Of a stretch of DNA of 64,000 bases, positions 28,157-45,580 are shown piece after piece. Position 1 is the stretch's first letter. Each line of letters opens with the position of its first letter. Below the pieces are notes generated by a model. That model was given only the letters and a program-made list of their open reading frames with translations. It did not search any database and was not told the origin of the DNA. This DNA comes from an uncultured Planctomycetia bacterium (GTDB lineage: Bacteria; Omnitrophota; Gorgyraeia; B26-G9). The stretch covers positions 17,910 through 81,909 of the forward strand of contig CAYTGV010000003.1 of NCBI GenBank assembly GCA_964437495.1, written 5' to 3'. Made by a program: the position numbers and the translations under genes.

Positions 28157-28168
28157 ATAGGAGGCTTA

Positions 28169-28351: not shown

Positions 28352-28464
28352 GCATTATTGTTGTATTTTTTGTACTTTGATTGCTCTAACTATATGAATG
28401 TTGTATAATAGATACTAACATTGTATATTTCAATAATAAAGACAATAATATTATTGAGGGAGAT

Positions 28465-28911
28465 ATGAGTATAATTGACTTAACACAACAAGAAGCAGAT
28501 GCATTAATTGCTATGGATAAAGTACGTATTAGCGATGAGCGGTATCTATTTCCTCAGCTTGGTGGTTCCTTAAGAATTCCTTTAAAATCGAAGGATGCAC
28601 GAGAGGAATTTATGCTTGATATTACCAGAGGTCAGATTAACCTTAAGAAAAATACTTTTCAAAATAGAGCACGTAAAGCAATAGTGCTAGTTAGGGTTGA
28701 TATTGATGGCCCCCCTCATTGTAATCCAGATGATAAAATAGTAGATTGCCCACATATTCATACTTATCGTGAAGGTTTTGGTGATAAATGGGCAGTCTCT
28801 TTGCCGGATTTTTTCTCGAAACCCGATGATAGTTGGACGACACTCGAAGAATTCATGAAGTATTGTAATATTTCTGATAAGCCGAATATTACTAGGGAAT
28901 TATTTATATGA
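28465..28911 (+). CDS. hypothetical protein (148 aa) with [10 protein letters not shown] motif, translationally coupled to next gene
   Basis: ORF; stop overlaps next start (ATGA). Confidence 0.4.
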
Positions 28912-29675
28912 AGGATGAAATTCAAAAATTATTAGATAATTATAATTTGTGGTTAAAAGATAGAACCGTTCTGAAACAAATTACTGATAAATGGGTTGAA
29001 ATTACTACGCCTCATCTTGATCGGCATAATGATTGTTTGCAGATTTATGTATTCAAACAAAATAATGGCTATTTAATAACAGATGATTCATATATAATTA
29101 CTGACTTAGCAAATTCAGGGTGTACTATAGATACTCCTAAGCGTCAAGAGCTTCTTAGGATGACTTTAGCTGGTTTTGGAGTGCAATTAGATGGTGATCG
29201 TTTAGTTGTTCATGCTACTTTTGAAAATTTTTCGCAAAAAAAACATAATATTATTCAGGCAATGGTGGCAGTTAATGATCTTTTTTATTTGGCGTCTCCT
29301 TATGTGTCTAGTATTTTTTATGAAGATGTTGCCAAATGGCTTGATCTTTCCGACATACGTTATACCCCTAAAGTTAAATTTACTGGTAAAACAGGGTATG
29401 ATTATATGTTTGATTTTGTAGTGCCTAAATCTAGGCAAGCACCTGAACGGATTTTACAGACAGTTAATAATCCTAAAAAAGATTCTGCTGAAGCCCTGCT
29501 TTATAGATGGATGGATACAAAGGAAACAAGACCACCAGATTCTAGATTGTATGCCTTTTTAAATGATTCCAATTTTCGTGTTTCGCAATCTGTTGTTGAT
29601 GCATTGGCAAGTTATGATGCGGTTCCTATTTTGTGGTCAAACCGTGAAGGGACACGCAAAGCATTATGTTCTTAG
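28908..29675 (+). CDS. DUF1828/DUF1829-type protein (255 aa)
   Basis: N-terminal LWLKD ... [20 protein letters not shown] resembles DUF1828 N-terminal region, C-terminal half DUF1829-like; assignment from memory of family consensus. Confidence 0.45.
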
Positions 29676-29809
29676 ATTTGTTATGATTAAAGGTCACATA
29701 TAATATCTAAAAAGAGGTCTCTTACTGCAATAAGTTGTTTTTTGAGTAGAATACGTTTACTTAATAGGTGAAAATCTAAAACTTAAATATTTTCGAAAAA
29801 GGGTATCAA

Positions 29810-32800
29810 ATGAGCTCTGATTTAACCTTTATAACCAATGAAAAGAATAAGCACTTACTTGACCGCTTTAAAGTTCTTATTAAAGACACACGTTTCTTTG
29901 ATGTTCTTGTCGGGTATTTTTATACAAGTGGTTTTCATGCCTTATATAAATCATTAGAATCTACTGAGAAGATCAGAATTCTTATTGGTATCAGCACTAA
30001 TAAAGAGACTGTTACTCTTTTTAATAAAGCAAATTATAATCTCCAGCCAACCTTTCAGTTTTCTCATGCAGAAGTTAAAAAGGAATTTGAAAATCATGTA
30101 AGTGAAGAGATGGAGAATTCGGAAGATAATCCCCATGTCGAAGAAGGGGTTTTAAAGTTCATTGAATGGCTAAAAATTGGAAAGCTTGAGATCAAAGCTT
30201 ATCCAACTCAAAATATACATGCAAAACTCTACATTATGACCTTTACTGAAGATGATCGCGATAAAGGGAGGGTGATAACAGGTTCAAGTAATTTTACTGA
30301 AGCTGGATTAAGGGATAACTTAGAATTTAATGTTGAGTTAAAAAATAGATCGGACTACGATTTTTCCTTGCAGAAATTCAATGAGCTTTGGGAAGATGCA
30401 GTAGATGTTAAAGATAAGTATATTGAGTCTATTCAGACAAAAACGTGGTTGAATGATACTATTACGCCTTATGAGTTGTATTTAAAGTTTTTATATGAAT
30501 ATTTTAAAGAAGATTTGAGTCAACCTGAAGAGGTTTTTTACCGTTATGTCCCTTCAGAATTCATGAAGCTTGAATATCAAGAACAAGCAGTATTGAATGC
30601 AAAGCGAATTCTTGATGAGTATGGCGGGGTTTTTATTTCTGATGTTGTTGGTTTAGGAAAAACTTATGTTTCTGCCTTACTTGCGCAACAATTAGATGGG
30701 CGGACATTAGTTATTGCTCCCCCGGTTCTTTTAGATAAGTGTAATCCGGGGTCGTGGCCAAATGTATTTTCTGATTTTAAAGTGGCTGCTGATTTCGAAT
30801 CATTAGGCAAGTTAGATAGCTTAATTAAAAGAGGAGCAGATAAATATAAAAATATCTTTATTGATGAAGCTCATCGTTTTAGAACAGAAACTAATATGAC
30901 CTATGAAAAGCTTGCTCAAATTTGCAGGGGCAAACGAATAATTTTAGTTACAGCAACTCCTTACAATAACTCTCCTAAAGATATTTTAAGTCAGATTAAG
31001 CTCTTTCAAAAAGGCAGGAATAGCACTATTCCTAATCTACCTGATTTGGAAAGGTTTTTTGGGGCTTTAGGGAAAAGAATAAAGAAGCTTGATAGACAGA
31101 AAGATTATAAAGAATATATAAGTATTGTTAGAAATAATGCGAAAGAAATCAGAGAAAAAGTTTTAAAATATTTAATGGTTCGGCGCACTCGCAATGAAAT
31201 CGTCAACCATTTTTCAAGGGATTTAAAAGAGCAAAATTTGAAGTTTCCAGATGTAGCTGATCCTGAAGCTATATTCTACGAATTAAATGATGAGGAAGAT
31301 AAGGTTTTTACTCAGACTATAGAGCTTATTGCTAAGAAGTTTAAATATTCTCGTTACACCCCATTATTATATTATCAAGGGAAAATTACCCAACCAGAAG
31401 AGTTAGCTCAAAGAAATATGGGCAAGTTCATGAAAATTCTTTTGATTAAAAGACTAGAGAGTAGCTTTTTTGCTTTTAGAAATTCTATAAGTAGATTTAT
31501 TGTTTCGTATACCCACTTTTTGAATGAACTAGATAAAGGCAATGTTTATGTCAGTAAAAAGCATATGAGTAAATTATTTGACTTGCTAGAAAATGACGAT
31601 GAAGAAGCAATTCAACGACTAATAGAAGAAGATAAAGCTAAAAAATATGATGCAAAAGATTTCAAAAAAGATTTTAAAAATGACTTAAAACATGATTTAG
31701 GAATATTATTAACCATTAAGAGGTTATGGGAAACCGTAAAAAGAGACCCTAAGCTTTTAGCGGCAAAACAGAAGTTGTCATCGAGGAAAATACTTAAAGA
31801 GCAAAAACTGATTATTTTTACTGAATCAAAAGAAACTGCTGATTATTTGTCAGGACATCTCAACGAATTATATAAAGATAAAGTTTTATGTTTTTCAGGC
31901 AGTTCTAGCGCTAGGATAAGAGAAAGGGTAATTGAAAATTTTGATGCAAAGGCTAGATATCCGAAGGATGATTATAGAATTCTTGTAAGTACAGAGGTTC
32001 TTTCAGAAGGTGTTAATTTGCATAGGTCCAATGTAGTTATTAATTACGACATTCCTTGGAATCCAACCCGTTTAATGCAAAGGGTAGGGCGAATTAATCG
32101 TGTCGATACAAAATTTAATAAGATTCATAGTTTTAATTTTTTTCCGACTAAGCAGTCAAATGATCAGATTAAACTGAAAGAGGCTGCTGAAGGTAAAATC
32201 CATGCTTTTATTTCAATGCTTGGAGCAGATGCTCGGTTGCTCACTGAAGGTGAGCCTATTGAGTCATTCGAATTGTTTAATAAATTACTTTCTAAAAAGA
32301 CGATTACTGGGGAAGATGAGCATGAGGAAAGCGAGTTGAAATATTTACAAGTTATAAAGGAGATTCGAGATAAAAACATAGACTTATTTGAAAAAGTAAA
32401 ACGATTGCCAAAAAAATCTAGGACAGCAAGGATTTTAAAAGATGCAAAAAATGCCCTTCTTACTTATTTTCGAAAGGGCAAATTACATAAGTTTTATATG
32501 GTAAGAATGAAGACTGAACCCGAGGAATTAGATTTTATTTCTGCAGCAAAGCGGTTGGAGGCTAGCCAGAGTGAGAAACGAGAAAAAATAAGTAAAGATT
32601 TATATGAGTTGTTAGAGAAAAATAAGCAAGCTTTTCATCATGCCACATTTGAAGAAGTGCCTGAGATTAAAGGGAAAGGTGGTCGTGATACTGTAACTTT
32701 AGTGTTAAGGATTCTTAAAACGAATGATATCAGGCGTTATAAGGGGTATACAGAGGATGATGAGCTCTATATTAAAAAAGTAATCAAAGAGGTAGAAGAA

Positions 32801-33001
32801 GGCGGTCTACCCAGACAAACTTCAAAGACTTTATTGAAAGAACTTCAAAAAGAATTGAAAAAAGGAGTTAATCCATTAAAGATATTAGCAATTTTAAAGA
32901 TGAATATTCCTGCTGAATTTTTACAAGAAGCTGCTTTTCAAACTGCTGCTCAAATTTTCGGCCCCAGAGAAGTGATTTTATCAGAATATTTTAAAGGTTG
33001 A
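29810..33001 (+). CDS. PLD-family (HKD) nuclease domain fused to SNF2/DEAD-like helicase (1063 aa)
   Basis: N-terminal NIHAKLYIMTF ... ITGSSNFTEAG is the HxK(x)4D(x)6GSxN PLD motif. Helicase domain shows Walker A GLGKTYVSALLA, DEAH-like FIDEAHRF, motif VI MQRVGRINR, and C-terminal STEVLSEGVNLHRSNVVINYDIPWNP. Confidence 0.8.
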   Translation: MSSDLTFITNEKNKHLLDRFKVLIKDTRFFDVLVGYFYTSGFHALYKSLESTEKIRILIGISTNKETVTLFNKANYNLQPTFQFSHAEVKKEFENHVSEEMENSEDNPHVEEGVLKFIEWLKIGKLEIKAYPTQNIHAKLYIMTFTEDDRDKGRVITGSSNFTEAGLRDNLEFNVELKNRSDYDFSLQKFNELWEDAVDVKDKYIESIQTKTWLNDTITPYELYLKFLYEYFKEDLSQPEEVFYRYVPSEFMKLEYQEQAVLNAKRILDEYGGVFISDVVGLGKTYVSALLAQQLDGRTLVIAPPVLLDKCNPGSWPNVFSDFKVAADFESLGKLDSLIKRGADKYKNIFIDEAHRFRTETNMTYEKLAQICRGKRIILVTATPYNNSPKDILSQIKLFQKGRNSTIPNLPDLERFFGALGKRIKKLDRQKDYKEYISIVRNNAKEIREKVLKYLMVRRTRNEIVNHFSRDLKEQNLKFPDVADPEAIFYELNDEEDKVFTQTIELIAKKFKYSRYTPLLYYQGKITQPEELAQRNMGKFMKILLIKRLESSFFAFRNSISRFIVSYTHFLNELDKGNVYVSKKHMSKLFDLLENDDEEAIQRLIEEDKAKKYDAKDFKKDFKNDLKHDLGILLTIKRLWETVKRDPKLLAAKQKLSSRKILKEQKLIIFTESKETADYLSGHLNELYKDKVLCFSGSSSARIRERVIENFDAKARYPKDDYRILVSTEVLSEGVNLHRSNVVINYDIPWNPTRLMQRVGRINRVDTKFNKIHSFNFFPTKQSNDQIKLKEAAEGKIHAFISMLGADARLLTEGEPIESFELFNKLLSKKTITGEDEHEESELKYLQVIKEIRDKNIDLFEKVKRLPKKSRTARILKDAKNALLTYFRKGKLHKFYMVRMKTEPEELDFISAAKRLEASQSEKREKISKDLYELLEKNKQAFHHATFEEVPEIKGKGGRDTVTLVLRILKTNDIRRYKGYTEDDELYIKKVIKEVEEGGLPRQTSKTLLKELQKELKKGVNPLKILAILKMNIPAEFLQEAAFQTAAQIFGPREVILSEYFKG

Positions 33002-33005
33002 CCTA

Positions 33006-36000
33006 ATGGAAAGAAAGCAAGCAAATAAGATAGTCAAAGATACTTTTGAAAATCCCTTCAATAAAGAACAATTCGTCTATTTTATCAAAAACCTTCTTAA
33101 TCATATTGAAGAAACTCCTGGTACGCTTTATCGTGGTAATTATATTCCTGATGCTTATGCTCCTTATGTAAATACATTAGAGCGTTTAGGTAAATATTTA
33201 GATGCTGATGAACGGTCAATAGATGTATTGATAGTTAATCTTAAAAAAAATACTTCTCTAGAGCGTGCACGTACTATGCAGCGTAATTTTATTGCTTGGT
33301 ATTTGAATGGTAGTCGAGGAGGGGTATTAAAAGATGCTGCATTGGTTGCTTTTGTTTCTCCAGCACAAGAAGATTGGAGATTTTCTCTAGTAAAAATGGA
33401 GTATAGTTTAGATACCAGCGGAGAAAAGGTTAAAACAAAAAAAGAGTTAACCCCTGCCAGAAGATTTTCTTTCTTAGTTGGAAAAAATGAAAATACGCAT
33501 ACTGCCCAAAGTTACTTATCCCCTATAATAGCTGATGAGAGTAAAGATTTAAATTTAAGTAATATAGAGAATGCCTTCAGTATTGAAAAAGTAACAAAAG
33601 AATTCTTTGAAAAATATAGAGATTTATTTCTTAAATTGACAGACTCTCTAAATGAGATAGTTAAAAAAGATCAAAAAGTTAGGGCTGATTTTAAAAACAG
33701 AGGAGTAGAAACTGTAAATTTTACCAAAAAGCTTTTAGGGCAGGTAGTATTTCTTTATTTTTTGCAAAAGAAAGGTTGGTTTGGAGTAGGAAGAGATGAA
33801 GAGTGGGGAACAGGACCTAAGAATTTTTTAAGGCTTCTTTTTGAGAAAAAGATTGTTGATTATAATAATTTTTTCAATGATATTTTGGAACCATTGTTCT
33901 ATGAGGCATTAGCTACTGAAAGAGAAGATAGTTTTTATAGCAGATTTAACTGTAAAATTCCATTTTTAAATGGCGGATTATTTGATCCTATTAATAATTA
34001 CGATTGGGTTCATACCGATATTGTTTTATTAAATGATATTTTCTCAAATAAGCATAAGACAAAAGAAGGTGATGAAGGGTCAGGAATTTTAGATGTTTTT
34101 GATAGATATAATTTTACTGTTAAGGAAGATGAGCCGCTTGAAAAAGAAGTAGCCGTAGACCCTGAAATGCTTGGTAAGGTTTTTGAGAATTTATTGGAAG
34201 TAAAAGATAGAAAGTCCAAAGGTACTTATTATACTCCCAGAGAGATTGTGCACTATATGTGCCAACAAAGTTTATGCAATTATTTGGCAGAAGAGCTTAA
34301 GGAAAAAATCACAAAAGAAGAGATTGATACGCTTATAAAATACGGAGAAAGTGCTATAGAACATGATAGTAGAGTTGAAACCTATGGAAAAGAAACAAAA
34401 ACTTATTCTTTTAAACTTTCTGAGAATATTAGAAAGAATGCATCTTTAATTGATGAAAAACTTTCGGATATTCGTGTATGTGATCCTGCTGTTGGTTCTG
34501 GAGCTTTTCTCGTTGGAATGATGAACGAAATTGTTCGTGTCCGCAATGCTTTAACTACCTATTTAAGAGATAAAAAGCAAAGAACCTTTTATGATTTTAA
34601 ACGGAATGCTATCCATTATTCTCTTTATGGGGTAGATATGGATCCAGGTGCTACTGAGATAGCTAAACTTAGACTTTGGTTGTCACTTGTTGTAGATGAA
34701 GAAGATATTAAACAAATTAAACCATTGCCTAATTTGGACTATAAGATTATGCAGGGCAATAGTCTAATTGAGGATTTAGTTATTAACAATATTGTTATTA
34801 AGTTTAATCTAGATGATGTAGTTAAAGTTGATCGTCGTACCAAGAAAACAAAAGAGTTATTTAAAAAAGAAGTGCAGCATACACTTTTTAAAGATAAAAG
34901 TGAGGATATTTTTGAAGAATTAAAGAAGTTGCATTCTGTTTATTTTGAAGAGAATAATAAAAACAAGAGGTTAATTTTAAAAGAAAAGATTGTTAGTACA
35001 GAGCAGTTATTTATAACAGCAAAATGCGAAGAAGAAATAGAGCGGTTAAATGTATTTAAGAATAATTGTCGAGATAGAAAAAGAATAAGCAATGTCGAAA
35101 GTCAAATAAAAACCATTCATTCTACGCTTCGTAAATTAAAAAAAGAAGGAACAAAACCTTTTTTCTTATGGAAGCTTAATTTTTCTGAAGTTTTTATTGA
35201 TAAAGGTGGGTTTGATGTGATTGTGGGGAATCCTCCTTATGTTCAGCTTCAAAAAACTGGTGGAGAATTAGCTAATGTTTATGAGCAGTGCGATTATGTT
35301 ACTTTTTCACGGACTGGTGACATTTATACATTATTTTATGAAAAAGCTCATCGCTTGTTGCGGACTCATGGGATAGCTTGTTTGATAACTTCTAATAAAT
35401 GGATGCGGGCTGGATATGGCAAATTGATTCGTAGGTACTTTATAGATGTTGTTTCTCTTCTTATTCTTATTGATTTTGGTGATGCACCATTATTCAAGAA
35501 TGCAACAACTTATACCAATATACTTCTTTTTAAGAATATTCCACCTAGTGATTGCAGATGTTCTGTTTATGACTTAAGTAAAGAGAAAGGCGTAGAGGGT
35601 AGATTATTATATTACCTCAGGAACTTGCAAGGAAAATATATTTCCAATTTTACAGAGGTAAGTTATTTGATTGTTAATAAATATGAATTCCAAATAAAGC
35701 AGAAGGTTGAAGCTAAAGGCATACCATTAAAAAATTGGGATATTGATATTTATCGGGGTATTTTGACTGGATTCAATGAAGCTTTTATTATTAACACCGA
35801 GATAAAAGAACGTTTATGCCGGGAAGATCCTAATTGTTTAAAAATTATTAAACCTATATTGAGAGGGCGGGATGTTAAAAGGTATAAAGCGGAATTTGCT
35901 GGATTGTGGTTGATTAATACCCACAATGGTTATGATAATGAGCCTCCAGTTGATATTAATGATTATCCAGTAATTAAAGATTATTTGAAGGAGATTGAAA

Positions 36001-36530
36001 GGAAACGTGTGGCTGGCGAGTATGGAGAAAAGGCCAAAAAAGCTAAAGGATTATTTAAGCGTGATGATCAGGGCATAACACCTTATAACTTAAGAAATTG
36101 TGCATATATCCCTAGTTTAGAGTTGGGTAAGATTATTTGGGCAGAAATAGTATTTGATTCTGCATTTTATTATGATGAGGATAACTATTATCCTGAGGCA
36201 ACATGTTTTGTCATGATAGGTAATAGGTTAAAGTACTTACAGGCTCTACTAAATTCTAAATTACTAACGTTTGCATTTAGAAAGTATTATGCTGGAGGAG
36301 ATTTAAGAGGTAATACTTTTAGATACAAGAAAGTTTTTGTTGAAAAACTGCCTGTGCTACGAATTTCTGAGCGCGAACAGCAATCTTTTGGAAAAATAGT
36401 AGATAAGATAGTTGGTGATAAAAAGAAAGGTAAAGATACTCTTATTTTGGAAGAAGAAATTGATGAACTTGTGTTTGATCTCTATGCTTTGACTGCAGAA
36501 GAACGAGAACAGGTAAGGAATTCATACTAA
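33006..36530 (+). CDS. large gamma-class N6-adenine DNA methyltransferase with C-terminal target-recognition region (PglX/MmeI-like, 1174 aa)
   Basis: Motif I VCDPAVGSGAFLVG (FxGxG), motif IV VGNPPYVQ (NPPY), about 430 aa C-terminal extension; separated by 4 nt from helicase gene (operon). Confidence 0.75.
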   Translation: MERKQANKIVKDTFENPFNKEQFVYFIKNLLNHIEETPGTLYRGNYIPDAYAPYVNTLERLGKYLDADERSIDVLIVNLKKNTSLERARTMQRNFIAWYLNGSRGGVLKDAALVAFVSPAQEDWRFSLVKMEYSLDTSGEKVKTKKELTPARRFSFLVGKNENTHTAQSYLSPIIADESKDLNLSNIENAFSIEKVTKEFFEKYRDLFLKLTDSLNEIVKKDQKVRADFKNRGVETVNFTKKLLGQVVFLYFLQKKGWFGVGRDEEWGTGPKNFLRLLFEKKIVDYNNFFNDILEPLFYEALATEREDSFYSRFNCKIPFLNGGLFDPINNYDWVHTDIVLLNDIFSNKHKTKEGDEGSGILDVFDRYNFTVKEDEPLEKEVAVDPEMLGKVFENLLEVKDRKSKGTYYTPREIVHYMCQQSLCNYLAEELKEKITKEEIDTLIKYGESAIEHDSRVETYGKETKTYSFKLSENIRKNASLIDEKLSDIRVCDPAVGSGAFLVGMMNEIVRVRNALTTYLRDKKQRTFYDFKRNAIHYSLYGVDMDPGATEIAKLRLWLSLVVDEEDIKQIKPLPNLDYKIMQGNSLIEDLVINNIVIKFNLDDVVKVDRRTKKTKELFKKEVQHTLFKDKSEDIFEELKKLHSVYFEENNKNKRLILKEKIVSTEQLFITAKCEEEIERLNVFKNNCRDRKRISNVESQIKTIHSTLRKLKKEGTKPFFLWKLNFSEVFIDKGGFDVIVGNPPYVQLQKTGGELANVYEQCDYVTFSRTGDIYTLFYEKAHRLLRTHGIACLITSNKWMRAGYGKLIRRYFIDVVSLLILIDFGDAPLFKNATTYTNILLFKNIPPSDCRCSVYDLSKEKGVEGRLLYYLRNLQGKYISNFTEVSYLIVNKYEFQIKQKVEAKGIPLKNWDIDIYRGILTGFNEAFIINTEIKERLCREDPNCLKIIKPILRGRDVKRYKAEFAGLWLINTHNGYDNEPPVDINDYPVIKDYLKEIERKRVAGEYGEKAKKAKGLFKRDDQGITPYNLRNCAYIPSLELGKIIWAEIVFDSAFYYDEDNYYPEATCFVMIGNRLKYLQALLNSKLLTFAFRKYYAGGDLRGNTFRYKKVFVEKLPVLRISEREQQSFGKIVDKIVGDKKKGKDTLILEEEIDELVFDLYALTAEEREQVRNSY

Positions 36531-36626
36531 TATTCCCGCCCTTTGCAATCGCAGTCGTCCGGCTTCATCCCGATAATTCGGTATTCCGCAACGTACTTTG
36601 TGCGCTTGCCCCCCCCCTAAAGGAAA

Positions 36627-36966
36627 CAAAAACACACCTTTTTAAAAAAATATTTCGCCGCCGCCAAAAAAAGAAATAAACGTTCAATTATGAGGGTTTT
36701 GCTCGGGAGAGGACGCAGGGATGCTAAACGAAGCCATTTCTGGCGAAGTGAGGCAGACCAAAGCCGGATCGTAGTAACGCATGAGCACGAAGCGAGCGGC
36801 CCAGCGAGCGAGGCAGTGAGCCGAAGCCCCAGCTGAGGCGAACGGTGCAAACACTGCCCAAGTAGCCCCGCCGAAGGCGGGGCGGTGCATCATAAAGTCA
36901 ATTCAGGTAGGAAAACAGTAAAAAGGAATGGTTTGAGAACTTTGTAGAGTGCAATCCAAGGGTCAA
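36627..36966 (-). repeat. GC-rich repeat 'a' (copy 2, inverted)
   Basis: Reverse complement aligns base-for-base with 26362-26692, with scattered substitutions. Confidence 0.7.
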
Positions 36967-37141
36967 CCGAATGTCTTAATGTAGAAACTTTTCGGCGAAT
37001 TTTTGTAAGCCGTTGATTTTGTTGACATTGTGATTTTCTTTCTGTTTCTGAAAACAAAAAATTAAAAGGGGGGAAAAGAGAAAAAGAAATTCTTTTATGG
37101 GGTCGAGCGCCGCCGATGGCGGGGGCGATTTTGATGTTTTT
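36967..37141 (-). repeat. inverted copy of miaB promoter/5'-start segment 'r' (near-identical to 45395-45569); with repeat 'a' forms an attP-like junction
   Basis: Reverse complement of 36967-37141 is almost identical to 45395-45569, including ttctacattaagacaTTCGGttg; continues into repeat 'a' instead of miaB. Confidence 0.7.
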
Positions 37142-37142
37142 C

Positions 37143-37318
37143 GTCTTGCTCTCGCTAATGTCTCGCAATCCGTCACACATCTCCCTAGATGTGCGTTAAA
37201 AAGCAGAAAAAAAGAAAAACCCCCACCCACCCGAAAATTGTCTCTGTGCTCGGACTTCTACGCCTCTGGCGTATTCGTTCCCTGCGCTCAGAGCCAATTT
37301 GTTCCCCCTAAAAATGGA
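37143..37318 (+). repeat. repeat 'b' (copy 2), followed by TTGACA...TAAAGT promoter of second island operon
   Basis: Similarity to 26738-26852 (gtcttgctNtcg ... ccccacccacccg ... cctgcgctcagagcc). Confidence 0.5.
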
Positions 37319-37319
37319 G

Positions 37320-37348
37320 CTTGACAAAATATGACAAAATGTGTAAAG
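37320..37348 (+). promoter_or_regulatory. sigma70-like promoter TTGACA-N17-TAAAGT, about 10 nt before ATG 37359 (near-leaderless)
   Basis: ttgacaaaatatgacaaaatgtgtaaagt read directly. Confidence 0.45.
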
Positions 37349-37358
37349 TGGGTTCACT

Positions 37359-37541
37359 ATGGAAAAACGATATAATTTAAGCAAAGCGGCAAAAGAATTA
37401 GGCATCACTCGCCAAGGTCTTTATTACTGGATAAAGAAAGGGTGGGTTACGCCTAAACGTGATTTTAAGAATCATCCTGTTTTTACGGATGCTGATTTGA
37501 AAAAGATTAAAGGGTGGATGAATAAATTAAAGGATTCCTGA
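37359..37541 (+). CDS. excisionase/AlpA-like HTH DNA-binding protein (candidate recombination directionality factor or regulator), 60 aa
   Basis: LSKAAKELGITRQGLYYWIKKGWV helix-turn-helix of excisionase-type; first gene of second island operon. Confidence 0.5.
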   Translation: MEKRYNLSKAAKELGITRQGLYYWIKKGWVTPKRDFKNHPVFTDADLKKIKGWMNKLKDS

Positions 37542-37543
37542 TT

Positions 37544-39148
37544 ATGAATATTGAAATCTTTATTGGGTTCTTAGGGCTTTTGATTACGATGTATGCTATT
37601 GCCCCAGAGGTGGTCAAGGCTAGGGTTCATGCTTTTATTAATCCATTGCTGTTTAAAATCGCGATACCTTTATATATAGTTGTATCTTTGTGCGTTCTTT
37701 ATTTTGAGCATTATTACTTAGATGATGTTTTAATGTGTGAAGTTTTATTTTGGGCAAAATATCTTTCTTATTGTGGGATATTCTTGTTAATATGGTTTAT
37801 CTATACATCTTTGAGAGATAGAAAGCTGGGGAAATCAAATATTGAAAGGTTTTATAAATTCCTAAAAGTTCTTTTGTCAAAGCAGCAGTTTTCAATATTA
37901 ATTGATATATTACATGGTAGTCTTAAATACATACTTCCATTATATAATGTTCAAGCAAAACCTGAAAAGTGTAAGAAATTAAAAAATACCATTATGGTTG
38001 GCGGCAAGGTTATTCCTTTTCCAGTTTTTCCATCTGATTCTTTTGAGACAGAGATTTCAAAAAAGATATTTAGAGACGTAATTTTTAACGAATCGTTCAT
38101 AAGGGCAAATATTCATTATGGGAAAAATTTTTCTATTGATTTTATAAGTGGTTGTAGAAAAAATAAAATACACATAAGTGATTATTCGGACTTGTTTCTT
38201 TATGAGCTTTTAAAAAACAAAGACTCTTTCCTCTATCAAGAATTAAAAGAAACGCTTACAGTCTATTCTCCAAGTAACGATGAATTTGATAGGTTTCCAT
38301 TTTTACATGTATTATTTGAGGATATTAAATACTTTAATGAACAGGGATTTTATAGAGGAATAGGGGAGTATGTCATTGAATTTGTTGATAGAAATATTGA
38401 CAGTAATAATGAGCGATATAGCCGTAGTACTAAATATTATTGGGATCAACGTGAGCGAGATGGTAAATACAAATGTCCTGTTTATATGGGACTTAGTTAT
38501 TTTACATATATGGTGAACAAGGCTATACGTGAGAATATTCAAAGCCATATGTGGCTTTTGTATGTTCATTATTGGGTTAAAGCGATATGTAAGAAAATGG
38601 TTTACTATGAAGATGAATGGCAGGGGGGCGGTGAGTTTCCTACAATTTACTGTTATTTGCTTTATGAGCTGCTTGGTATCCATGGCAATTGGGTTAAGCA
38701 TATATATGAAGTTTCAAGCGAGGAACAACATGGTAGTTCTTTTCAGCAGGACGATAAATCAATTGATATAAGTGAGGAAAGGGAGTTAATTTTAGAATGG
38801 ATACTTAAGGATATGCTTTATTGTGCTGATAGTATCGCGCAATGTGAAGCCATCCCCTATGATAAGCGTGTGTACTTACTTAAAACGTTTATGGGTGTAA
38901 ATATTGGGATAAAAAGCAACTTTTCTCAATACGGGAAAGCTTGTATTGCAAAAGCCACCAATTTAAATAAAGTTATTAGTATATATATAGATGAGTTTGA
39001 AAAAAGAATACGTAACAAGAATTACTCAAAAGCTTTTAACGAAGATTTAAAAAATGCGTGTCAAGATGCATTAGAATCAATGGATACAATTCCTTTAGAC
39101 AGTAATATTGTTAGATTTTGGAAGGGCTGGCTCAGTGGATTACAGTAA
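37544..39148 (+). CDS. membrane-anchored protein of unknown function (534 aa; 3 N-terminal TM helices + large cytoplasmic domain)
   Basis: Hydrophobic segments at residues about 5-20, 40-55, 75-90; no recognisable catalytic motif; start 3 nt after HTH gene stop. Confidence 0.4.
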   Translation: MNIEIFIGFLGLLITMYAIAPEVVKARVHAFINPLLFKIAIPLYIVVSLCVLYFEHYYLDDVLMCEVLFWAKYLSYCGIFLLIWFIYTSLRDRKLGKSNIERFYKFLKVLLSKQQFSILIDILHGSLKYILPLYNVQAKPEKCKKLKNTIMVGGKVIPFPVFPSDSFETEISKKIFRDVIFNESFIRANIHYGKNFSIDFISGCRKNKIHISDYSDLFLYELLKNKDSFLYQELKETLTVYSPSNDEFDRFPFLHVLFEDIKYFNEQGFYRGIGEYVIEFVDRNIDSNNERYSRSTKYYWDQRERDGKYKCPVYMGLSYFTYMVNKAIRENIQSHMWLLYVHYWVKAICKKMVYYEDEWQGGGEFPTIYCYLLYELLGIHGNWVKHIYEVSSEEQHGSSFQQDDKSIDISEERELILEWILKDMLYCADSIAQCEAIPYDKRVYLLKTFMGVNIGIKSNFSQYGKACIAKATNLNKVISIYIDEFEKRIRNKNYSKAFNEDLKNACQDALESMDTIPLDSNIVRFWKGWLSGLQ

Positions 39149-39267
39149 ATTATGAAAGTATCAATTTGTATAAGAGTTTCAACTGGAGACCAAGTTAAAG
39201 AGAGGTTACTCTAAGAAATCTAAATAGGTTGTTTTGAGGGCGTTGTTATTATTAAGATTTAAAATTT

Positions 39268-40149
39268 ATGAGAAATATAAATAGATATTTTTGTCGAGCA
39301 TTAGATTCCAATAACACATTTTCGCCAAGTGTTCATTGGGAGCATTGTCTTTTGTTAGAAAAGGCAATGTTGGATATATTACAATATATTCCCATACATG
39401 ATGGGATGCCGGATGAGAATTGGAAAGTTAGCAGTCCAAAATTAATAGATATATTTGTCAAGTCATGCTTCCTTTTTGAAGCGGCATTTAAAGGTATTTC
39501 AAATGAACCAACGGATCGTATTGTCAACTATCTTAAACAAAATGCATATGTATGGAGTGAATATTTTCTTGATGGAAAAAATCGCAACGGCAAATGTAAA
39601 GAATTAGATATTTGCGATTTTTTAACCTTTTATGACGCGTATTGTTCCTTGAACTTCTTAGAAGCAAGAATCAGATGTTCTCAAAATATTAGTGACGTTT
39701 GGGTAAATAAAATGACTGTAATTCGTCCATTTTTTAATATGAAACTCGAAAATAATGTAGTAATTAAATCCCCTGATTGGTGGAAAAAATACACACAAAT
39801 TAAACATAATTTTTATTCCTATCCACAAGAAATTAATTTGGAAGCTACAATTGAAGCTTTAGCTGCATTGATATCTTTCACCGCAGTTGTTCCTCAGATG
39901 CGTCGATTACTCTGCGATCATGGGTACATACAGGATAATTTTAAAAAACCTTTTGATATTGAAAAAATCGGACGAAAAATTAATGATAAATTTGTTAAGG
40001 ACCCTTGGGTTAACCATAAAAAAATGTTCTTCGAGGAATATGATGATATTGATACGATGCCCGCTATTGCATGTGTATCAGATTTATTTATAGTACCTTT
40101 TGTAGGCGATTATAGAAAAGCTAGATTATGGTCGGGGATAGGAAAATAA
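39268..40149 (+). CDS. hypothetical protein (293 aa), no recognised domain
   Basis: ORF in operon context; Cys/His-rich, W-rich C-terminal region. Confidence 0.35.
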   Translation: MRNINRYFCRALDSNNTFSPSVHWEHCLLLEKAMLDILQYIPIHDGMPDENWKVSSPKLIDIFVKSCFLFEAAFKGISNEPTDRIVNYLKQNAYVWSEYFLDGKNRNGKCKELDICDFLTFYDAYCSLNFLEARIRCSQNISDVWVNKMTVIRPFFNMKLENNVVIKSPDWWKKYTQIKHNFYSYPQEINLEATIEALAALISFTAVVPQMRRLLCDHGYIQDNFKKPFDIEKIGRKINDKFVKDPWVNHKKMFFEEYDDIDTMPAIACVSDLFIVPFVGDYRKARLWSGIGK

Positions 40150-40154
40150 GAGTT

Positions 40155-40246
40155 GATAAAACCAGAAAGAGATTATAGTACTTTTCCGGTGTTTACAAAT
40201 GCTGATTTAAAGAAAATTAAAAGGTGGAAAGATAAAATTAAATAAA
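40155..40246 (+). pseudogene. 3'-end remnant of a second copy of the excisionase-like HTH gene (ELIKPERDYSTFPVFTNADLKKIKRWKDKIK then stop)
   Basis: Translation aligns with C-terminus of 37359 gene (GWVTPKRDFKNHPVFTDADLKKIKGWMNKLK); no start codon or HTH portion. Confidence 0.5.
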
Positions 40247-40268
40247 GAGGTGTTAAGGACTTAATAAT

Positions 40269-41060
40269 ATGGCACATTTAACTACTAATGAAAAACAAAT
40301 TCTTGAGAAGCTCTTTCAACTGGGAGGGGGCTATGTTTTGAATTTTTCTGATAGAACCATGGGGGAGTTTTTTAAAGACGATGTTGGTATTGATATATAC
40401 GATGAAAAGTATAATTATGCCAGTGGTTCAAAGGCTAATCGTATGCGTGGATTTTGGCGTGAGGCAAATAATGCAATAGTTAGCGCCTCGATTATTAAAT
40501 TAGTTGAGTATCTTAAAAACCAGATGCTTTTAGGCGAATTGAAAGAGAAAGAATTTCCTGAAAAATTATTACAGCGTGCTTTACAAATAGCGAGTAAATT
40601 AGCCGCAAATGATAACAAGAATGTGGTTTTTACAGTAAAGCCAATCAAAACACTTGTAGCCCAACTTCAAGAAGCTAAATTAAAAGATGGTAAAATTACT
40701 ATAACTTTACACAAGAAAGTTTTTGACCACGTTCAAAGCCTTCTGTCTGATGGACACTACTTTAATGCAGTTGAAGAAGCATATAAAATCGTTAGAAATA
40801 AATTGCGCGATGTTAGCGGTAGCGAGAGGGCAACGGATGCTTTTAAAGAGGCTAACTATGAGCGTATTTTTGGTCATAATCCGGCAAATCAAGCGGAAAA
40901 AGATTTTTATGAAGGAGTAAAATTTTTACATATGGCTATACAGTTTTTAAGGAATGAAAAAGCTCATACACCAGCATATGATTTAGATAAAAATTTGGCA
41001 ATTCATTATATAGCACTAGCTAGCTTGGCGTATGATTTGGTTGATAGGCAAAAGAAGTAA
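40269..41060 (+). CDS. HEPN-domain protein of the TIGR02391-like family (263 aa)
   Basis: C-terminal FLRNEKAHTP (R-x4-H HEPN motif) within GHYFNAVEEAYKIVRNKLRD ... context typical of TIGR02391/Abi-associated HEPN. Confidence 0.5.
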   Translation: MAHLTTNEKQILEKLFQLGGGYVLNFSDRTMGEFFKDDVGIDIYDEKYNYASGSKANRMRGFWREANNAIVSASIIKLVEYLKNQMLLGELKEKEFPEKLLQRALQIASKLAANDNKNVVFTVKPIKTLVAQLQEAKLKDGKITITLHKKVFDHVQSLLSDGHYFNAVEEAYKIVRNKLRDVSGSERATDAFKEANYERIFGHNPANQAEKDFYEGVKFLHMAIQFLRNEKAHTPAYDLDKNLAIHYIALASLAYDLVDRQKK

Positions 41061-41144
41061 ATATCTATTGCAATTATCCTGTATTTACAGAACTAGATTT
41101 TTTAAAAATTAAAATTTGGGAAAAGAAACTAAAAGAGGTGTGAT

Positions 41145-43916
41145 ATGAATTGTTTGACAGGTTCATTGTGGCGTAAATGGGATTTGCATGTGCATGCTCC
41201 GGGAACAAAACTTAATGATGGATATAAGGTTGAAGATGGAAAAAATGTCTGGGATGATTTCTGCAAAATTGTAGAAGAATCTGATGTTGAGGTTTTTGCT
41301 ATTACGGATTATTTTTCAACTGATGTATATAAAACTTTTAAAATTGAGTATCAAAAAAGATATCCAGAATCAAGAAAAAAGTTCTTTTTGAACATTGAAC
41401 TTAAACTTAATGAGTCAGTAAATAGTAAATCAGAAGAAATTAATTTACATTTAATCTTTAATCCATTATCCGCTGATAAGGCTGACGATTTCTTGAGTAA
41501 TTTGAAGCTTGTAAAAACAGGGAAAGATGGAATCTCAATAAAGTGTTCAGACTTAAATTCAGTTGATGACTATAAATCGGCAACTGTTACAAGAGATTTT
41601 ATCGAATTTGCATTTCAGGAGACCTTTGGAAAGAAAGCTATTCGGCAAGATCATTTTCTTATTTTTACAGCTGCTAATAATGAGGGGATTCGTCCTGAAA
41701 AAGGTAAAAAGAGAAAAGAAATTATAAGTGATGAAGTTGATAAATTTAGCGATGTTTTTTTGGGAGGGGCGCAAAATGTAGTGTATTTTTTGGGAGAGGA
41801 TAGGCTTGAAGATAATGAACAGAAAATAATCAAAAAACCTGTTGTCTCAGGTAGTGATTGTCATTCCTTTCAAGATTTAAATGCATTTCTTGGGAAGAGG
41901 GTTATTAAAAATATTGATGGGAAAGAAATAATTATAAAAGATATCACTTGGATAAAGGCAAATCCAACCTTTGAAGGTTTAAAACAGATAATTTATGAGC
42001 CAGAGCCTGGAGAACGGGTTTATATCGGCACACTCGAACCTGATAGGAAAAATGATTTTCAAATAATACGAAAAATAAGGTTTGAAAATTCAACTGATTT
42101 TCCTACTGAAATTTATTTCAACAATAACCTTTGCTCTATTATTGGCAGTAGATCTACTGGTAAATCGGCGTTACTTGCATATATAGCGCATTCTATAGAT
42201 AAAGATTTAGCTGAAATGCTGAGGCCTGGCCCAGGAGATGGGGATGATTACCATTGGGATAAAATTGATATTGATTGTTTTGTGGAGTGGGGGAATGGAA
42301 TTTCTTCTAATGATGCTAAGTGAAAGGTAGTTTATATACCGCAAAATTATCTACTTGATAAAAGTAAAGATTCAGAAGAGATAAAGAATAAGATTGAACC
42401 GGTATTGTTTAAAAAATTTACTGAGTTCAAACTGCGATATGAGCAGGCGAAAAAACAGATAGCTGATTGTAATGCTAATATTTCTGATTATGTGAATACT
42501 TGGATTAAATTAGCAGATGCAATTTGTTCGTTTGCAAAAAGTCTAAAAGACTTAGGGGATAAAGAAGGAATTAAGAAAGAAAATAAAAATACTGAAATAA
42601 AAATAGAAGAGCTTAAAAAAAAGTATCAGTTAAGTGAAAGTGATGTTAAAAAATATAAAGAGATAAGTTCTGACTTATCTATGTATGAAGTAAATATCAA
42701 AGAAAGGGAAAAAGAGCTTGCTCAAATTGGTAGTGAAGGGGAAATAGATCAATTTTTTTCATCATTAAACTGGACTTTTGTTCCAAATATCGAAAGTTTG
42801 CCACAGAAGTTGCAAGATGTAATTAAAAAAGAAATGGAAGATGTTGACAACGGAATTCTAAAAAAAGCAAATGAACTAGTTGTTAAATATAAAATTAAGC
42901 TAGATAAAGATATAGATGATTCTGAAAAAGCAATCATCGGAATTAAAAGTGTTAATAATATCTTAATTGAAAAATATCAGAAAAATATTGAGCTCAATGC
43001 GCTTATCAAGAAAATAGAGGGGCTTAATAAGAACTTGCAAACTATAGAATCATTAGAGAAAGAGATAAATATAAAAAGAGTGTTATTGGGTGAATGTCAA
43101 AAAAACATTGATATAGAAATAAGCAAAAGAGAGGATCAATTTAAACAGCTTAAGGAAGATCTTGAAGCTAAAGATCAAAAAGGAGCCGATATAGAATTTA
43201 ATATTGAATATGGATTAAATCCTGGAGATGTGGAAAGGGTTGCAAAAAAAATAAATTTAAAGGAAAGATCCGATTTCGTTGAAAAAAACGAATTAAAAGT
43301 AGATGACATAAGAAAAAAATCAAACGAATTTTTAAAAGCAATTTATTTTGGAAAGCAAAAAATAAATTCAGGTAATATAAAGAAAGATGTTATAGAAGAT
43401 ACGCTAACGTTGACCGAGAATATTTTATTTGCTGCTAAAATGGAAGGGGATCGGATAGGAGGCTTTCTTGAAACTACCATGACTCCTGGCAGGCGAGCTC
43501 TTTTTCTTTTAAGATTGATTCTGGACGAATCAGATGATGCTTGGCCTATTCTCATTGATCAGCCAGAAGATAATTTAGATAGTAGATCTATTGCTAAGGA
43601 AATAGTTCCATTTTTTAAAGGCAGGAAAAAAGAAAGACAAATAATTATGGCTAGTCATAATGCAAATCTCGCAATTGGAGCAGATTCAGAACAAATCATT
43701 GTAGCAAATAGACATGGACAAGATAAGCCAAATTTAGATGGAAAGCAGTTTAATTATTTAACAGGTGGTATCGAAAACACAAAAGAGAAGTCTGAAAAAA
43801 TCAAGGACACGCTAGGATCTCAAGGTATTCGAGAACATGCATGTGAAATATTAGATGGTGGAAAAGAGGCTTTTGAATACAGAAGAAACAAGTATAATTT
43901 TAAAAAGAGATATTGA
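41145..43916 (+). pseudogene. PHP-domain + SMC/ABC-type ATPase (Ppl/PplA-like single-gene defence protein) interrupted by one in-frame TGA (42321-42323)
   Basis: N-terminal WDLHVHAPGT...DG PHP motif. Walker A GSRSTGKSALLAYI. After the stop comes a long coiled-coil, then Walker B/D-loop ILIDQPEDNLD and H-loop MASHNANL. ORFs 41145-42323 and 42405-43916 are in the same frame with no other stop between them. Confidence 0.6.
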
Positions 43917-43918
43917 AA

Positions 43919-45580
43919 ATGCAAGTTGCTTTATATATTAGAGTTTCTACCGAAGATCAAGCAAAAGAGGGATATTCTCTTGAAGTCCAAAGAGAATATC
44001 TTGAATCTTTTGCTAAGCGCGAATGCTTTGAAGTTTTTAAAATCTATTGTGATGAGGGGATAAGTGCCTACTCTACTAGACGAGAAGCGTTACAGCAATT
44101 AATAAAGGATTCTAAGGATAAAAAGTTTGATCTTGTGCTTGTTTATAAAATAGACCGCTTTAGTCGTAAGCTAAAAGACCTTTTAAATTTGGTTGATGAG
44201 TTGTCTTCTTATGGTGTTGGCTTTAAGTCTGCAACTGAGCCTTTCGATAGCACAACATCAGCAGGAAAGTTGATGTTTCAGCAATTAGGTTCCTTTGCAG
44301 AGTTTGAGCGAAATCGTATTTCTGAGAGAGTATTCCCTGGAATGGTTAAAGGTGTTCAACAAGGCAATTGGCAGGGAGCGAGGTTTTCACCGTTTGGCTA
44401 TACTTACAATAAAGAAAAAAAGCTATTAGAAGTTGAGCCTCGGGAAGCGGATATTGTTAAGTTGATTTATACAATGTATCTAACTGGCAAAAGCACGCAT
44501 GAGATTGCTGAGTATTTGAATAAGAAAAAATATCAAACTAGGACAGGAAAACAATTTTATACTAAATTTATAGGTGATATTTTAAAGAATAGAATTTATA
44601 CAGGGAAGATCGTTTGGAATAAAAAGCATTATGATAAAAATCAAAAAACAAAGAAGCATTATAAATATATTAAAAATGATGCTTCAAAAATTATAATTGC
44701 TCAAGGCAAGCATGCTCCAATAATTGATGAGCAGGATTTTGAAGCAGTACAGAAGTTATTAGCTGAAAAGAAAAGAACATGGCGGCCAAGAGTAAAAAAT
44801 AAAGAGTATCTTTTAACTGGTTTGCTTACTTGTACGAAATGTAATCATAAATACAATGGAGTATCATCAATATCAAATCATAGAACTAATAAAAAGAAAC
44901 GATGGTATCGTTGCTCAGGGCCTTATGCTAATCATATTAGATGTACAAATGGATCAGTCAAGGCAGAGGATATTGAACCGGAAGTTACAAAGATTGTGGC
45001 TCAGTTGATTCAAAATGATAGGTTAAAACAGAGCCGATGGATGAGCGGGACTTTGCCAAAAAGCGCAAATTTTCCCAATTTTGGCAAAAATACCAAAATT
45101 GACGCATCTAAACTTAAAAATAAGCTTGAAGATAACCAAAGAAAGCAGTCAAAACTAACAGACGCTTATTTGGAAAATTTGCTTGGAGAAGATGTGTTTC
45201 GTGGTAAGATAGAACAACTTCGCAAGGAAGAGGATGAACTAAAGATAATCCTTGCAGGATATGAACTTAGGGAGATTGAAAGCGAAAGATCAGAAGGGTA
45301 TATTAACAGAGTAAAAGACTTTTTGGATGGGCATGACGAGGCTAAGTCAGCAATAGATTTTGCTACCAAGAAAGCGATGTGCGGACTGCTTTTTAAAAAC
45401 ATCAAAATCGCCCCCGCCATCGGCGGCGCTCGACCCCATAAAAGAATTTCTTTTTCTCTTTTCCCCCCTTTTAATTTTTTGTTTTCAGAAACAGAAAGAA
45501 AATCACAATGTCAACAAAATCAACGGCTTACAAAAATTCGCCGAAAAGTTTCTACATTAAGACATTCGGTTGCCAGATGA
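43919..45580 (+). CDS. large serine recombinase (integrase) of the integrated element
   Basis: N-terminal resolvase catalytic domain with catalytic-Ser context YIRVSTEDQ...DRFSR. Followed by recombinase domain and Cys-rich zinc-ribbon LTCTKCNHKYNG...RCSGP and coiled-coil. The ORF 3' end runs into the att/miaB-promoter repeat and overlaps miaB start. Confidence 0.85.
   Translation: MQVALYIRVSTEDQAKEGYSLEVQREYLESFAKRECFEVFKIYCDEGISAYSTRREALQQLIKDSKDKKFDLVLVYKIDRFSRKLKDLLNLVDELSSYGVGFKSATEPFDSTTSAGKLMFQQLGSFAEFERNRISERVFPGMVKGVQQGNWQGARFSPFGYTYNKEKKLLEVEPREADIVKLIYTMYLTGKSTHEIAEYLNKKKYQTRTGKQFYTKFIGDILKNRIYTGKIVWNKKHYDKNQKTKKHYKYIKNDASKIIIAQGKHAPIIDEQDFEAVQKLLAEKKRTWRPRVKNKEYLLTGLLTCTKCNHKYNGVSSISNHRTNKKKRWYRCSGPYANHIRCTNGSVKAEDIEPEVTKIVAQLIQNDRLKQSRWMSGTLPKSANFPNFGKNTKIDASKLKNKLEDNQRKQSKLTDAYLENLLGEDVFRGKIEQLRKEEDELKIILAGYELREIESERSEGYINRVKDFLDGHDEAKSAIDFATKKAMCGLLFKNIKIAPAIGGARPHKRISFSLFPPFNFLFSETERKSQCQQNQRLTKIRRKVSTLRHSVAR
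45395..45569 (+). repeat. element right end 'r': replacement promoter + first 20 codons for miaB, ending at attR core TTCGG
   Basis: Near-identical inverted copy at 36967-37141. Confidence 0.7.

Follow-up and report, generated by a model that had tools for sequence, protein, structure and literature searches.

The DNA analysed in this study, referred to below as the window, is a stretch of 64,000 nucleotides from contig CAYTGV010000003.1 of an uncultured bacterium placed in the Omnitrophota. It carries a 19.2 kb island that encodes a large serine recombinase (LSR) and is inserted at the 5' end of the housekeeping gene miaB. In the middle of the island, at 36629-37141 on the minus strand, lies a second attachment site of that enzyme in inverted orientation. 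Judged from its reading frames, this site is a complete attP together with a silent, start-less spare copy of the 3' end of the LSR gene, and not a gene in its own right. Because about 20 related contigs share the layout, the internal inverted attP is inherited and conserved in the family. This structural account, a conserved second attP combined with a spare integrase end, we regard as highly probable. The explanation that we favour overall, at even chances, is that the site is a real, family-conserved second attP and that inversion at this site would restore a full-length LSR.

The island has three junctions, and their comparison revealed one common core. The left junction (attL) reads ..AAAACCTTCGGC-TG-ACCCTTGG.., with the TG at 26359-26360 of the plus strand, and the right junction (attR) reads ..AGACATTCGGT-TG-CCAGATGAA.., with the TG at 45571-45572 of the same strand. 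On the minus strand the internal site reads ..AGACATTCGGT-TG-ACCCTTGG.., its TG appearing as CA at 36964-36965 of the plus strand. This is exactly the order P-TG-P', that is, an intact, inverted attP of the LSR encoded at 43913-45580. An earlier sequence-only reading of the window had proposed such a joint between the right and left ends of the element, inverted inside an island at the miaB 5' end, and the three-junction comparison bore this out. The base preceding the TG is of the host type (C) in attL and of the element type (T) in attR and in the internal site. Since both this base and the bases that follow the TG differ between the recombination partners, the crossover is confined to the dinucleotide itself.

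Joined to each other, the outer flanks of the two TGs read ATG AAT AGA AAA TTC TAC ATT AAA ACC TTC GGC TGC CAG ATG AAT, which translates as MNRKFYIKTFGCQMN, a normal MiaB N-terminus. The first eleven of these codons (26326-26358, plus strand; MNRKFYIKTFG) are the displaced original miaB start and form the left arm of attL (B arm); joined to 45573 and onward, they give MNRKFYIKTFG-CQMNDRDSE, as in ordinary MiaB. A sigma-70-like site was located near the displaced start by the promoter scan (26288-26316). Because the outer flanks rebuild the MiaB N-terminus, the 19.2 kb between the two TGs can be identified as an LSR island at miaB codon 12. Two features by which LSR elements are recognised were found, namely attL and attR hybrids that rebuild the target gene around a 2 bp crossover, and a protein with catalytic resolvase, Recombinase, and zinc-ribbon domains. 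Read by eye, the P arm equals the host B arm at 20 of 26 positions and is identical to it from -11 to -21. The two arms are alike because the P arm has to encode ..FYIKTFG as the B arm does; as a consequence, attL resembles attP and attR resembles attB.

The repeats that make up these sites were delimited by a repeat search and by blastn. Positions 36964-37141 are the perfect reverse complement of 45395-45572 (178 nt, 100%), and 36629-36993 are the reverse complement of 26333-26692 (92.3% over 365 columns). Without the crossover dinucleotide, the first pair comprises r1 (36966-37141, minus strand) and r2 (45395-45570, plus strand), which are 100% identical. The former is an inverted, start-less copy of the last 59 LSR codons (KNIKIAPAIGG...RHSV) and of the replacement miaB start, and represents the internal P arm; the latter is the 3' end of the LSR gene itself, forms the P arm of attR, and holds the new miaB start (ATG 45508). 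The second pair comprises a1 (26361-26692, plus strand), the P' arm of attL and left end of the element, in which the frame of the LSR tail described below is intact, and a2 (36629-36963, minus strand), the inverted P' arm of the internal site; these are 92.8% identical. A weaker direct similarity, termed b, connects 26763-26848 with 37221-37313 (74%). The order of r followed by a on the minus strand had been placed correctly to within a few bases in the sequence-only reading, and the r copies described there as almost identical are in fact fully identical. The replacement miaB start supplied by the element was likewise recognised correctly, as was the succession of repeat b and a second promoter and operon behind the junction: block b2 (37142-37358, plus strand), the conserved leader of an operon that encodes a helix-turn-helix (HTH) protein and the LSR, contains a promoter-like site (TTGACA-17-TAAAGT, 37321-37349, plus strand, promoter scan).

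The LSR gene (43913-45580, plus strand) matched the Pfam families Resolvase (PF00239, 1.6e-39), Recombinase (PF07508, 7.7e-25), and Zn_ribbon_recom (PF13408, 3.8e-11), and its open reading frame (ORF) crosses attR. In every locus, including the subfamilies with diverged DNA, this frame was open through all of r and stopped only past the core. Beside miaB, the LSR ends 2-5 codons past the core (..HSVAR* in the window), at a TGA within the invariant ATGAA of miaB (CAG-ATG-AA). Beside a, the frame runs on for 22-25 codons and spells a conserved C-terminal peptide, which is DPWIALYKVLKPFLLTIFHPELT in a1 (26360-26431, plus strand), DPWIALYKVLKPFLFTVFLPELTL in a2 (36890-36963, minus strand), DPWFVLYKLSKPFFFTAFQVELAA.. 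in most relatives, DPWATIYHQLKRVLEMIYKNTL in L052, and AIWLEIYRKLKPVLEFIYKDQI in L053. The full-length form of the enzyme ends in ..HSVDPWIALYKVLKPFL[FL]T[VI]F.., the integrated form in ..HSVAR. Over the first 20 codons of the tail in 19 sequences, differences at codon positions 1, 2, and 3 numbered 647, 480, and 1211. At its other end, r opens with conserved LSR residues (KNIKIAP...KRISFSLFPPFNFLFSE; in distant relatives RISPSLFEPFGKIFS). We therefore read the first ~72 nt of a as coding for a conserved C-terminal amphipathic helix of 22-25 residues, and attP as sitting inside the 3' end of the LSR gene, with the last 59 codons before the TG in r and the final 22-25 in a. A view of a as a wholly non-coding RNA was revised since its first ~72 nt are coding. 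In an AlphaFold model of a full-length homologue (mean pLDDT, the predicted local distance difference test, 67), the tail was predicted as a helix on a disordered linker.

Because the LSR frame continues from r across the TG into a, integration truncates the integrase by ~24 residues. Insertion into miaB swaps the tail for two residues and a stop (..HSVAR*), while r supplies the new miaB start. The repeat r had been taken mainly for the miaB promoter in the sequence-only reading. This did not hold, as the consensus promoter scan gave no sigma-70-like match within r; from its frames, r is to be read primarily as the last 59 codons of the LSR, overlapping a replacement miaB start in another frame. 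The gene that follows the LSR is miaB, with an element-supplied N-terminus (MSTKSTAYKNSPKSFYIKTFG; 45508-46809, plus strand), and then miaA (Pfam). The miaB and LSR frames differ and overlap by 73 nt (45508-45580), a layout which suggests that the LSR operon and miaB share a transcript. When the LSR and MiaB, as delimited here, were looked up as exact proteins, no record was returned, probably owing to different start calls. A search of a protein collection with the reconstructed full-length LSR separated two length classes. Short proteins of ~553 aa ending in ..S[AV][RK] were encoded on contigs of up to 448 kb, and long proteins of 564-583 aa carried a tail; the members with an a-type tail were all encoded on contigs of ≤15.7 kb.

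Both internal joints were recovered independently of the source contig, which is JGI Ga0307991_1000101. In two further samples, MEGAHIT contigs of 55 kb each (L119 and L120) matched window positions 30006-37104 at 100% and 99.99%, ran through b3 (the block that precedes a2), a2, and the core, and ended exactly 141 nt (= k) inside r1. The joint between r1 and b2 was crossed in three other assemblies (contigs L002, L003, L004, and L117); of these contigs, L002 spans the entire module (37001-45535) and carries 141 nt of inverted r at each end. The two joints were thus found in independent MEGAHIT and Logan assemblies, and many relatives showed the inverted layout in assemblies from SPAdes, MEGAHIT, and JGI. 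As r (178 nt) is longer than k (141), the MEGAHIT contigs leave the orientation of 37142-45394 relative to its flanks unfixed, and this orientation is taken from the JGI contig and from the like orientation of all related loci. An adjacency of a to b2 is not obtained however the repeat graph is resolved, and the site is therefore not convertible to a simple tandem joint. An assembly artefact, which the sequence-only reading had considered, is excluded for both internal junctions. An artefact at the inverted repeats in a wider sense could draw on the length of r, since k-mers alone leave the module orientation undetermined, but we consider it extremely improbable given that the a2-core-r1 joint survives every repeat-graph resolution and that many relatives show a like layout in different assemblies. 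Where inverted att copies are met in the miaB-located defence islands of Omnitrophota, they should not be treated as misassemblies and "corrected".

The search for related LSRs in metagenome and genome contigs yielded 105 loci, mostly in metagenome-assembled genomes (MAGs) of Candidatus Omnitrophota. On ~20 contigs with both sides visible (L010, L011, L013, L018, L019, L052, L053, L055, L087, L088, L090, L092, L093, L095, L097, L099, L102, L105, L112, and L114), the HTH and LSR module was bracketed by an inverted pair of LSR 3' ends, and 14 further contigs break off inside the left r copy. The pair comprises the last 160-263 nt of the LSR gene, mostly 160-182, and its smallest spacing (2.3-2.9 kb) encloses the HTH and LSR genes only. 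The layout is kept down to 53% LSR identity. All left r copies, compared in ~20 rows, continue into a (TGACCCTTGG..), or into a divergent P'-type arm in L046 and L108; none continues into miaB. On the right, r leads into miaB, into a, or into a third arm of P'-like type, termed X. The joint of r and b2 (minus strand ..ggcaagacg followed by AAAAACATC) is the same throughout the subfamily of the window. A recent local accident, as the sequence-only reading had suggested, does not agree with an inverted arrangement and an r/b2 joint that recur, across many samples and assemblers, in ~20 related contigs.

The near-identity of the r copies, which had been taken as a sign of a recent event, proved to be a property of the family. 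Within a locus the copies are mostly 96-100% identical, compared with 75-94% between loci (6-25% difference), and they are more alike than the a copies of the same locus (100% versus 92.8% in the window, 96.6% versus 86.3% in L112). Drifted pairs were found in L018 (85%), L013 (89%), L096 (72%), and L108 (69%). Such a pattern indicates concerted evolution. The tail frame was intact in all internal copies examined, although these have no conserved start codon and relatives carry stops just upstream, which suggests that the copies are periodically put to use. The internal site is the sole intact LSR 3' end adjoining the HTH-LSR module. In L103 it is reduced to ~76 nt around the core (23 nt of r and 52 nt of a), and this remnant points to the att site itself as the part retained. 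A reading of the left copy as a small gene of its own, for which the window has a 96 aa ORF, was rejected, as relatives show upstream stops and no start. For the two small ORFs over the junction, look-ups yielded the source contig only.

Several contigs deserve mention in their own right. L114 is 99.7% identical to L011 over 10.2 kb, and from about nt 25 of r it continues with r-core-a-b1 of another, L095-like lineage (L114 9850-10330 versus L011 11274-11760, alignment A3). The pattern looks like a homologous crossover within the LSR 3' end; a chimeric assembly is a possible alternative. Arm X (TGGCCG[AT]TGG..) follows LSR-r in L011 (11640-13260), L008, L012, L033, L038, and L090, and in proteins P0003, P0011, P0025, P0038, P0094, and P0098. 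It codes for a tail that is analogous but not the same ([GDV]R[WM]CKYR..IL.IL..), occurs on contigs of up to 120 kb, and in L011 lies 1.6 kb upstream of a miaB with its own start. Arm X may represent a P' arm that belongs to a sister type of element in tandem arrays. The left boundaries of L011 (7848-8571), L018 (5929-6484), and L099 (7130-7759) adjoin host-like pilO, rpoN, two-component, and ACP genes and two cargo genes, and contain neither an attL copy of a nor a displaced miaB start.

The function that we find most attractive for the internal site is that of an inversion switch, a role we propose tentatively. Recombination of the internal attP with attR would invert the 8.4 kb HTH-LSR module and join the a2 tail to the body of the LSR, thereby switching the truncated, integrated enzyme to its full-length form. 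The inversion could be site-specific, carried out at the TG by the LSR with attR being attB-like, or RecA-dependent, across the identical 178 nt r copies. If the tail-less LSR were less active, the observed orientation would act as a sink and would for this reason be the sole orientation assembled. That inversion occurs, and that the tail affects LSR activity or directionality, we infer from this arrangement. More speculatively, the LSR may be a self-truncating bacterial serine integrase with a reset, in which integration removes the helix, excision or inversion against the spare attP restores it, and the state of the DNA sets the form of the enzyme and perhaps its directionality. As in known inversion switches, inverted sites (the internal attP and attR) bound a segment that carries the recombinase. 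The sole recombinase found in the island is an LSR of 553-575 aa, and neither a small serine invertase (~190 aa) nor a tyrosine recombinase was detected. A 60 aa MerR/Xis-like HTH protein always accompanies the LSR and is encoded upstream of it in most loci (tblastn; 37359-37541, plus strand, MerR/excisionase-like by Pfam, in the window); it is a candidate directionality factor or regulator. Full-length LSRs with LSR-r-TG-a joints were found on the short contigs L007, L014, L021, and L112, and such a joint also occurs in L114 in an apparently chromosomal context with pil genes on the left.

A number of observations weigh against restoration of the LSR by inversion. The sequence-only reading had raised a recombinase-mediated inversion and had proposed to look for orientation heterogeneity; the idea survives as the most attractive function, but the flipped state was found neither among 111 related loci nor by look-ups with the HTH and type IIG proteins. 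On assembled contigs, miaA is visible in 21 loci, in every one of which the LSR was co-oriented with miaB and miaA, and miaB adjoins none of the left r copies. Recombination of attP with attR is not predicted by the canonical rules for LSRs, and the equivalence of the B and P arms is an argument from sequence only. Nor could the inverted duplication be derived by stringing together canonical reactions (attP x attB or attL x attR). In L011/L114, L018, and L099, the left neighbours of b3-a are host-like genes (pilMNO, rpoN, a two-component system), which directly adjoin it, and attL is absent; integration of a circle does not explain these left flanks without extra deletions. Since no catalytic or DNA-binding domain is lost from the integrated LSR, its tail may be dispensable, and the AlphaFold model predicts no confident docking of the tail. 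Finally, the inner boundary of r shifts by -32 to +9 codons in distant subfamilies.

Other explanations of the inverted site were weighed against the same evidence. One that is compatible with, and partly overlaps, our best explanation, although we think it unlikely, is an excised circle of ~19 kb in which two inverted r-TG-a repeats part the C1 cargo from the C2 recombination compartment. Like the yeast 2-micron plasmid, such a circle would integrate via either site or flip-flop, and the internal site would be the unused attP. L112 agrees with it, as this single contig consists of the reverse complements of a, core, and r, followed by genes for RES, HTH, DUF4238, and a full-length LSR, and then by r-core-a. 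So does the distribution of the two LSR forms, with a-type tails on contigs of ≤15.7 kb only and truncated forms on contigs of up to 448 kb. The LSR-r-core-a-b1 joint of L007 is the one expected from attL x attR excision of the arrangement in L086/L087, and all four pairings of the LSR or b2 side with the b1 or b3 side occurred among the contigs. However, integration via the second site would leave the LSR antiparallel to miaB, which was observed in 0 of 21 loci, no contig proved circular, and in L114 host-like pil genes lie to the left of the full-length configuration. One ancient inversion of an attP joint in a tandem array, functionless and kept uniform by gene conversion, is in our judgement improbable. 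Tandem arrays and decayed neighbours do occur at the locus (L035, L103, L113, and L114), the identity of the r/b2 joint across the subfamily is consistent with a single origin, and some copies have drifted as noted above. Against such a frozen accident stand the maintenance of the arrangement to 53% LSR identity with differing inner boundaries, the open tail frame of the silent copy with its mostly synonymous changes, and the retention of just the ~76 nt att core in L103.

The sequence-only reading had also offered tandem integration, with two related elements (26.4-36.6 kb and 37.1-45.6 kb) and a recent flip of the 0.5 kb joint between them. The accretion part of this idea is supported by relatives (L035, L103, and L114), and in the window a1 and a2 differ by 7%, as from separate sources, b1 and b2 are related leaders, and the attB-like attR makes a second integration plausible. 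It leaves the conserved inverted site unexplained, however. Direct attP-like joints, as in SCCmec-like tandem arrays, are present in L035 and L103 but not in the window, where the joint is inverted and the left part has neither a recombinase gene nor an r of its own. In addition, the joint is older than this genome, since it has equal boundaries in ~20 other contigs, and no repeats flank the 0.5 kb segment to invert it. Taken together, a recent local flip appears very unlikely. We hold an equally low opinion of a regulatory decoy, in which the internal attP, ~200 nt upstream of the HTH-LSR promoter, would act without recombination as an operator for LSR/HTH autoregulation or titrate the integrase. 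Its position, constantly just upstream of b2 and the promoter-like site, and the retention of only the core in L103 would suit a decoy, but this role would not account for a coding sequence of 178 nt and a tail frame of 72 nt that are kept intact and homogenised, and we know of no precedent for a decoy of this kind among LSRs.

Several known systems resemble parts of this arrangement. In the Mu G and P1 C segments (Gin/Cin), the R64 shufflon, and the hsdS shufflers, inverted sites within genes swap 3' ends, and both orientations are readily observed. They share with the miaB island a constant 5' body with an exchangeable 3' end and a recombinase beside or inside the segment, but use small serine invertases or tyrosine recombinases. 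In the switch proposed here, an LSR would exchange its own 3' end and one of the sites is an att junction in a host gene; no flipped copy was seen. SCCmec, which is inserted by Ccr at rlmH (orfX), is an LSR island in a gene end that restores the gene and regenerates an attB-like site, so that arrays accrete. The miaB islands are likewise located in the end of a housekeeping gene and form arrays (L035, L103, and L114). However, insertion is at the 3' end of the gene in SCC and at the 5' end in the miaB family, which provides a new start, and SCC is not known to have an internal inverted att site or an att site in ccr. In engineered phiC31 cassettes and inversion latches, inverted att sites give inversion or cassette exchange and not excision. 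Those constructs are synthetic and pair attP with attB, while the island is natural and has two sites with an identical left arm, so that the products would equal the substrates.

A further likeness is to the "suicidal" integrases of the SSV type from archaeal viruses and plasmids (SSV1, pTN3, and pT26-2), whose recombination site lies within their own gene, so that integration breaks the gene and the complete gene exists only in the free form; according to a 2021 review, they are exclusive to archaea (PMC8371274). The island shares with them a recombination site within the coding sequence of the integrase, which integration parts to both ends of the element. The SSV-type enzymes are tyrosine recombinases of an archaeal clade, whereas the enzyme described here is a bacterial LSR from Candidatus Omnitrophota MAGs. 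Only its last ~24 codons are split off, leaving the catalytic and DNA-binding domains intact, and the element keeps an inverted spare of the severed end and of attP, which has not been described for the SSV type. The LSR is therefore an analogue, not a member, of the SSV-type suicidal integrases. In the integration-dependent immunity of mycobacteriophage BPs and its relatives, attP lies within a phage gene, and integration alters the C-terminus and the behaviour of the product (PMC4557955). There, the split gene encodes the repressor and the integrase is a tyrosine recombinase, while here the integrase itself is split; BPs also has no internal second attP. The dusA-specific islands (DAI integrases) insert in, and replace, the 5' end of a tRNA-modification gene (PMC4482086), but they employ tyrosine integrases, have no second att site, and leave the integrase gene unsplit. 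Literature searches found neither this family of elements described nor any LSR reported to have an inverted attP inside its element.

The remainder of the island consists of cargo genes and conserved non-coding blocks. The C1 cargo (27013-36530, plus strand; Pfam and PADLOC) comprises a DUF1016/PDC-S02 nuclease, a small ORF (28169-28351), PDC-M24 A/B (DUF6978, DUF1828/1829), a PLD-SNF2 helicase (1063 aa), and a type IIG restriction-methylase (1174 aa). The C2 cargo (37544-43916, plus strand) encodes proteins of 534 and 293 aa, Hypoth_Ymh (263 aa), a protein of 392 aa, and an AAA_21-type ATPase (503 aa). The 534, 293, and 392 aa proteins (37544-39148, 39268-40149, and 41145-42323), encoded between the HTH protein and the LSR, gave no Pfam or PADLOC match and are candidates for an undescribed defence system. 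In relatives, the same compartments hold Gabija-like OLD and UvrD, HerA with PD-(D/E)XK, NTase/HEPN, AbiV, RhuM, RES, and a diversity-generating retroelement. The last was found in L112 (981-6973; reverse transcriptase, bAvd, and Lcl_C target) together with an IS110-family transposase and NTase/HepT toxin-antitoxin genes. Just upstream of the displaced miaB start, a 39-codon ORF with two CxxC pairs (26067-26186; zinc-ribbon/desulforedoxin-like) fell below the cutoffs of the ORF list.

Block b1 (26693-27010, plus strand), which is conserved, non-coding, and related to b2, follows a1, and blocks of its type follow a in L007, L014, L021, L034, and L114. Block b3 (36531-36628, plus strand) is conserved between the last cargo gene and the inverted a2, and its reverse complement follows a in most relatives. 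In L095, two direct b3 copies (2721-2800 and 6274-6347) bound a cargo cassette. Blocks b1, b2, and b3 have a common CCCC(T)TAAAAGGAA end and are located at cassette starts and ends; they may be terminators or cassette-boundary sites. The end of b3 (36607-36617) contains a run of nine C (gcttgCCCCCCCCCtaaagg), a possibly slippage-prone tract that is shorter in relatives.

The distal two-thirds of a (26432-26692 and 36629-36889) is G+C-rich, hairpin-rich, and conserved in the family, with variable inserted hairpins and compensatory changes (alignment A2); the b blocks are likewise rich in G+C and show conserved hairpins with compensatory changes. In alignment A2, pairing reached 89.5% of the cells (slid controls, 34-47%), and the strand running from r to a is favoured by G-U pairs. 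The window copy folded with no better energy than shuffles, and Rfam searches of the whole window and of both repeat regions gave no matches, either at the gathering threshold or at E<=1. Distal a could act at the DNA level, or it could serve the full-length LSR mRNA as a 3' untranslated region or terminator. It includes a perfect 17 bp hairpin (A2 columns 361-391) whose loops, CCCCACCC and GGGTGGGG, are mutually reverse complementary (e.g., L011 versus L018); the stem is unchanged or compensated, and loop inversion of this sort is typical of DNA palindromes. Two exact-pattern scans of viral contigs with a sequences gave no match.

Large serine integrases are workhorses of genome engineering, and the control of their directionality is an active question. 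The split integrase gene with its inverted spare end combines three nearest known kinds, namely LSR islands, suicidal integrases, and invertible segments that swap 3' ends. The flagged junction is real and heritable, and it is a conserved design element of this island family, in which attP lies inside the integrase gene, integration alters the C-terminus of the enzyme, and a second, inverted attP preserves the lost end. If the proposed mechanism is true, a bacterial serine-recombinase counterpart would extend the concept of the suicidal integrase beyond the archaeal tyrosine enzymes and would offer a natural, testable case of integrase control that depends on the recombination state. The inverted spare copy would then solve the problem of how a suicidal integrase gets out again.

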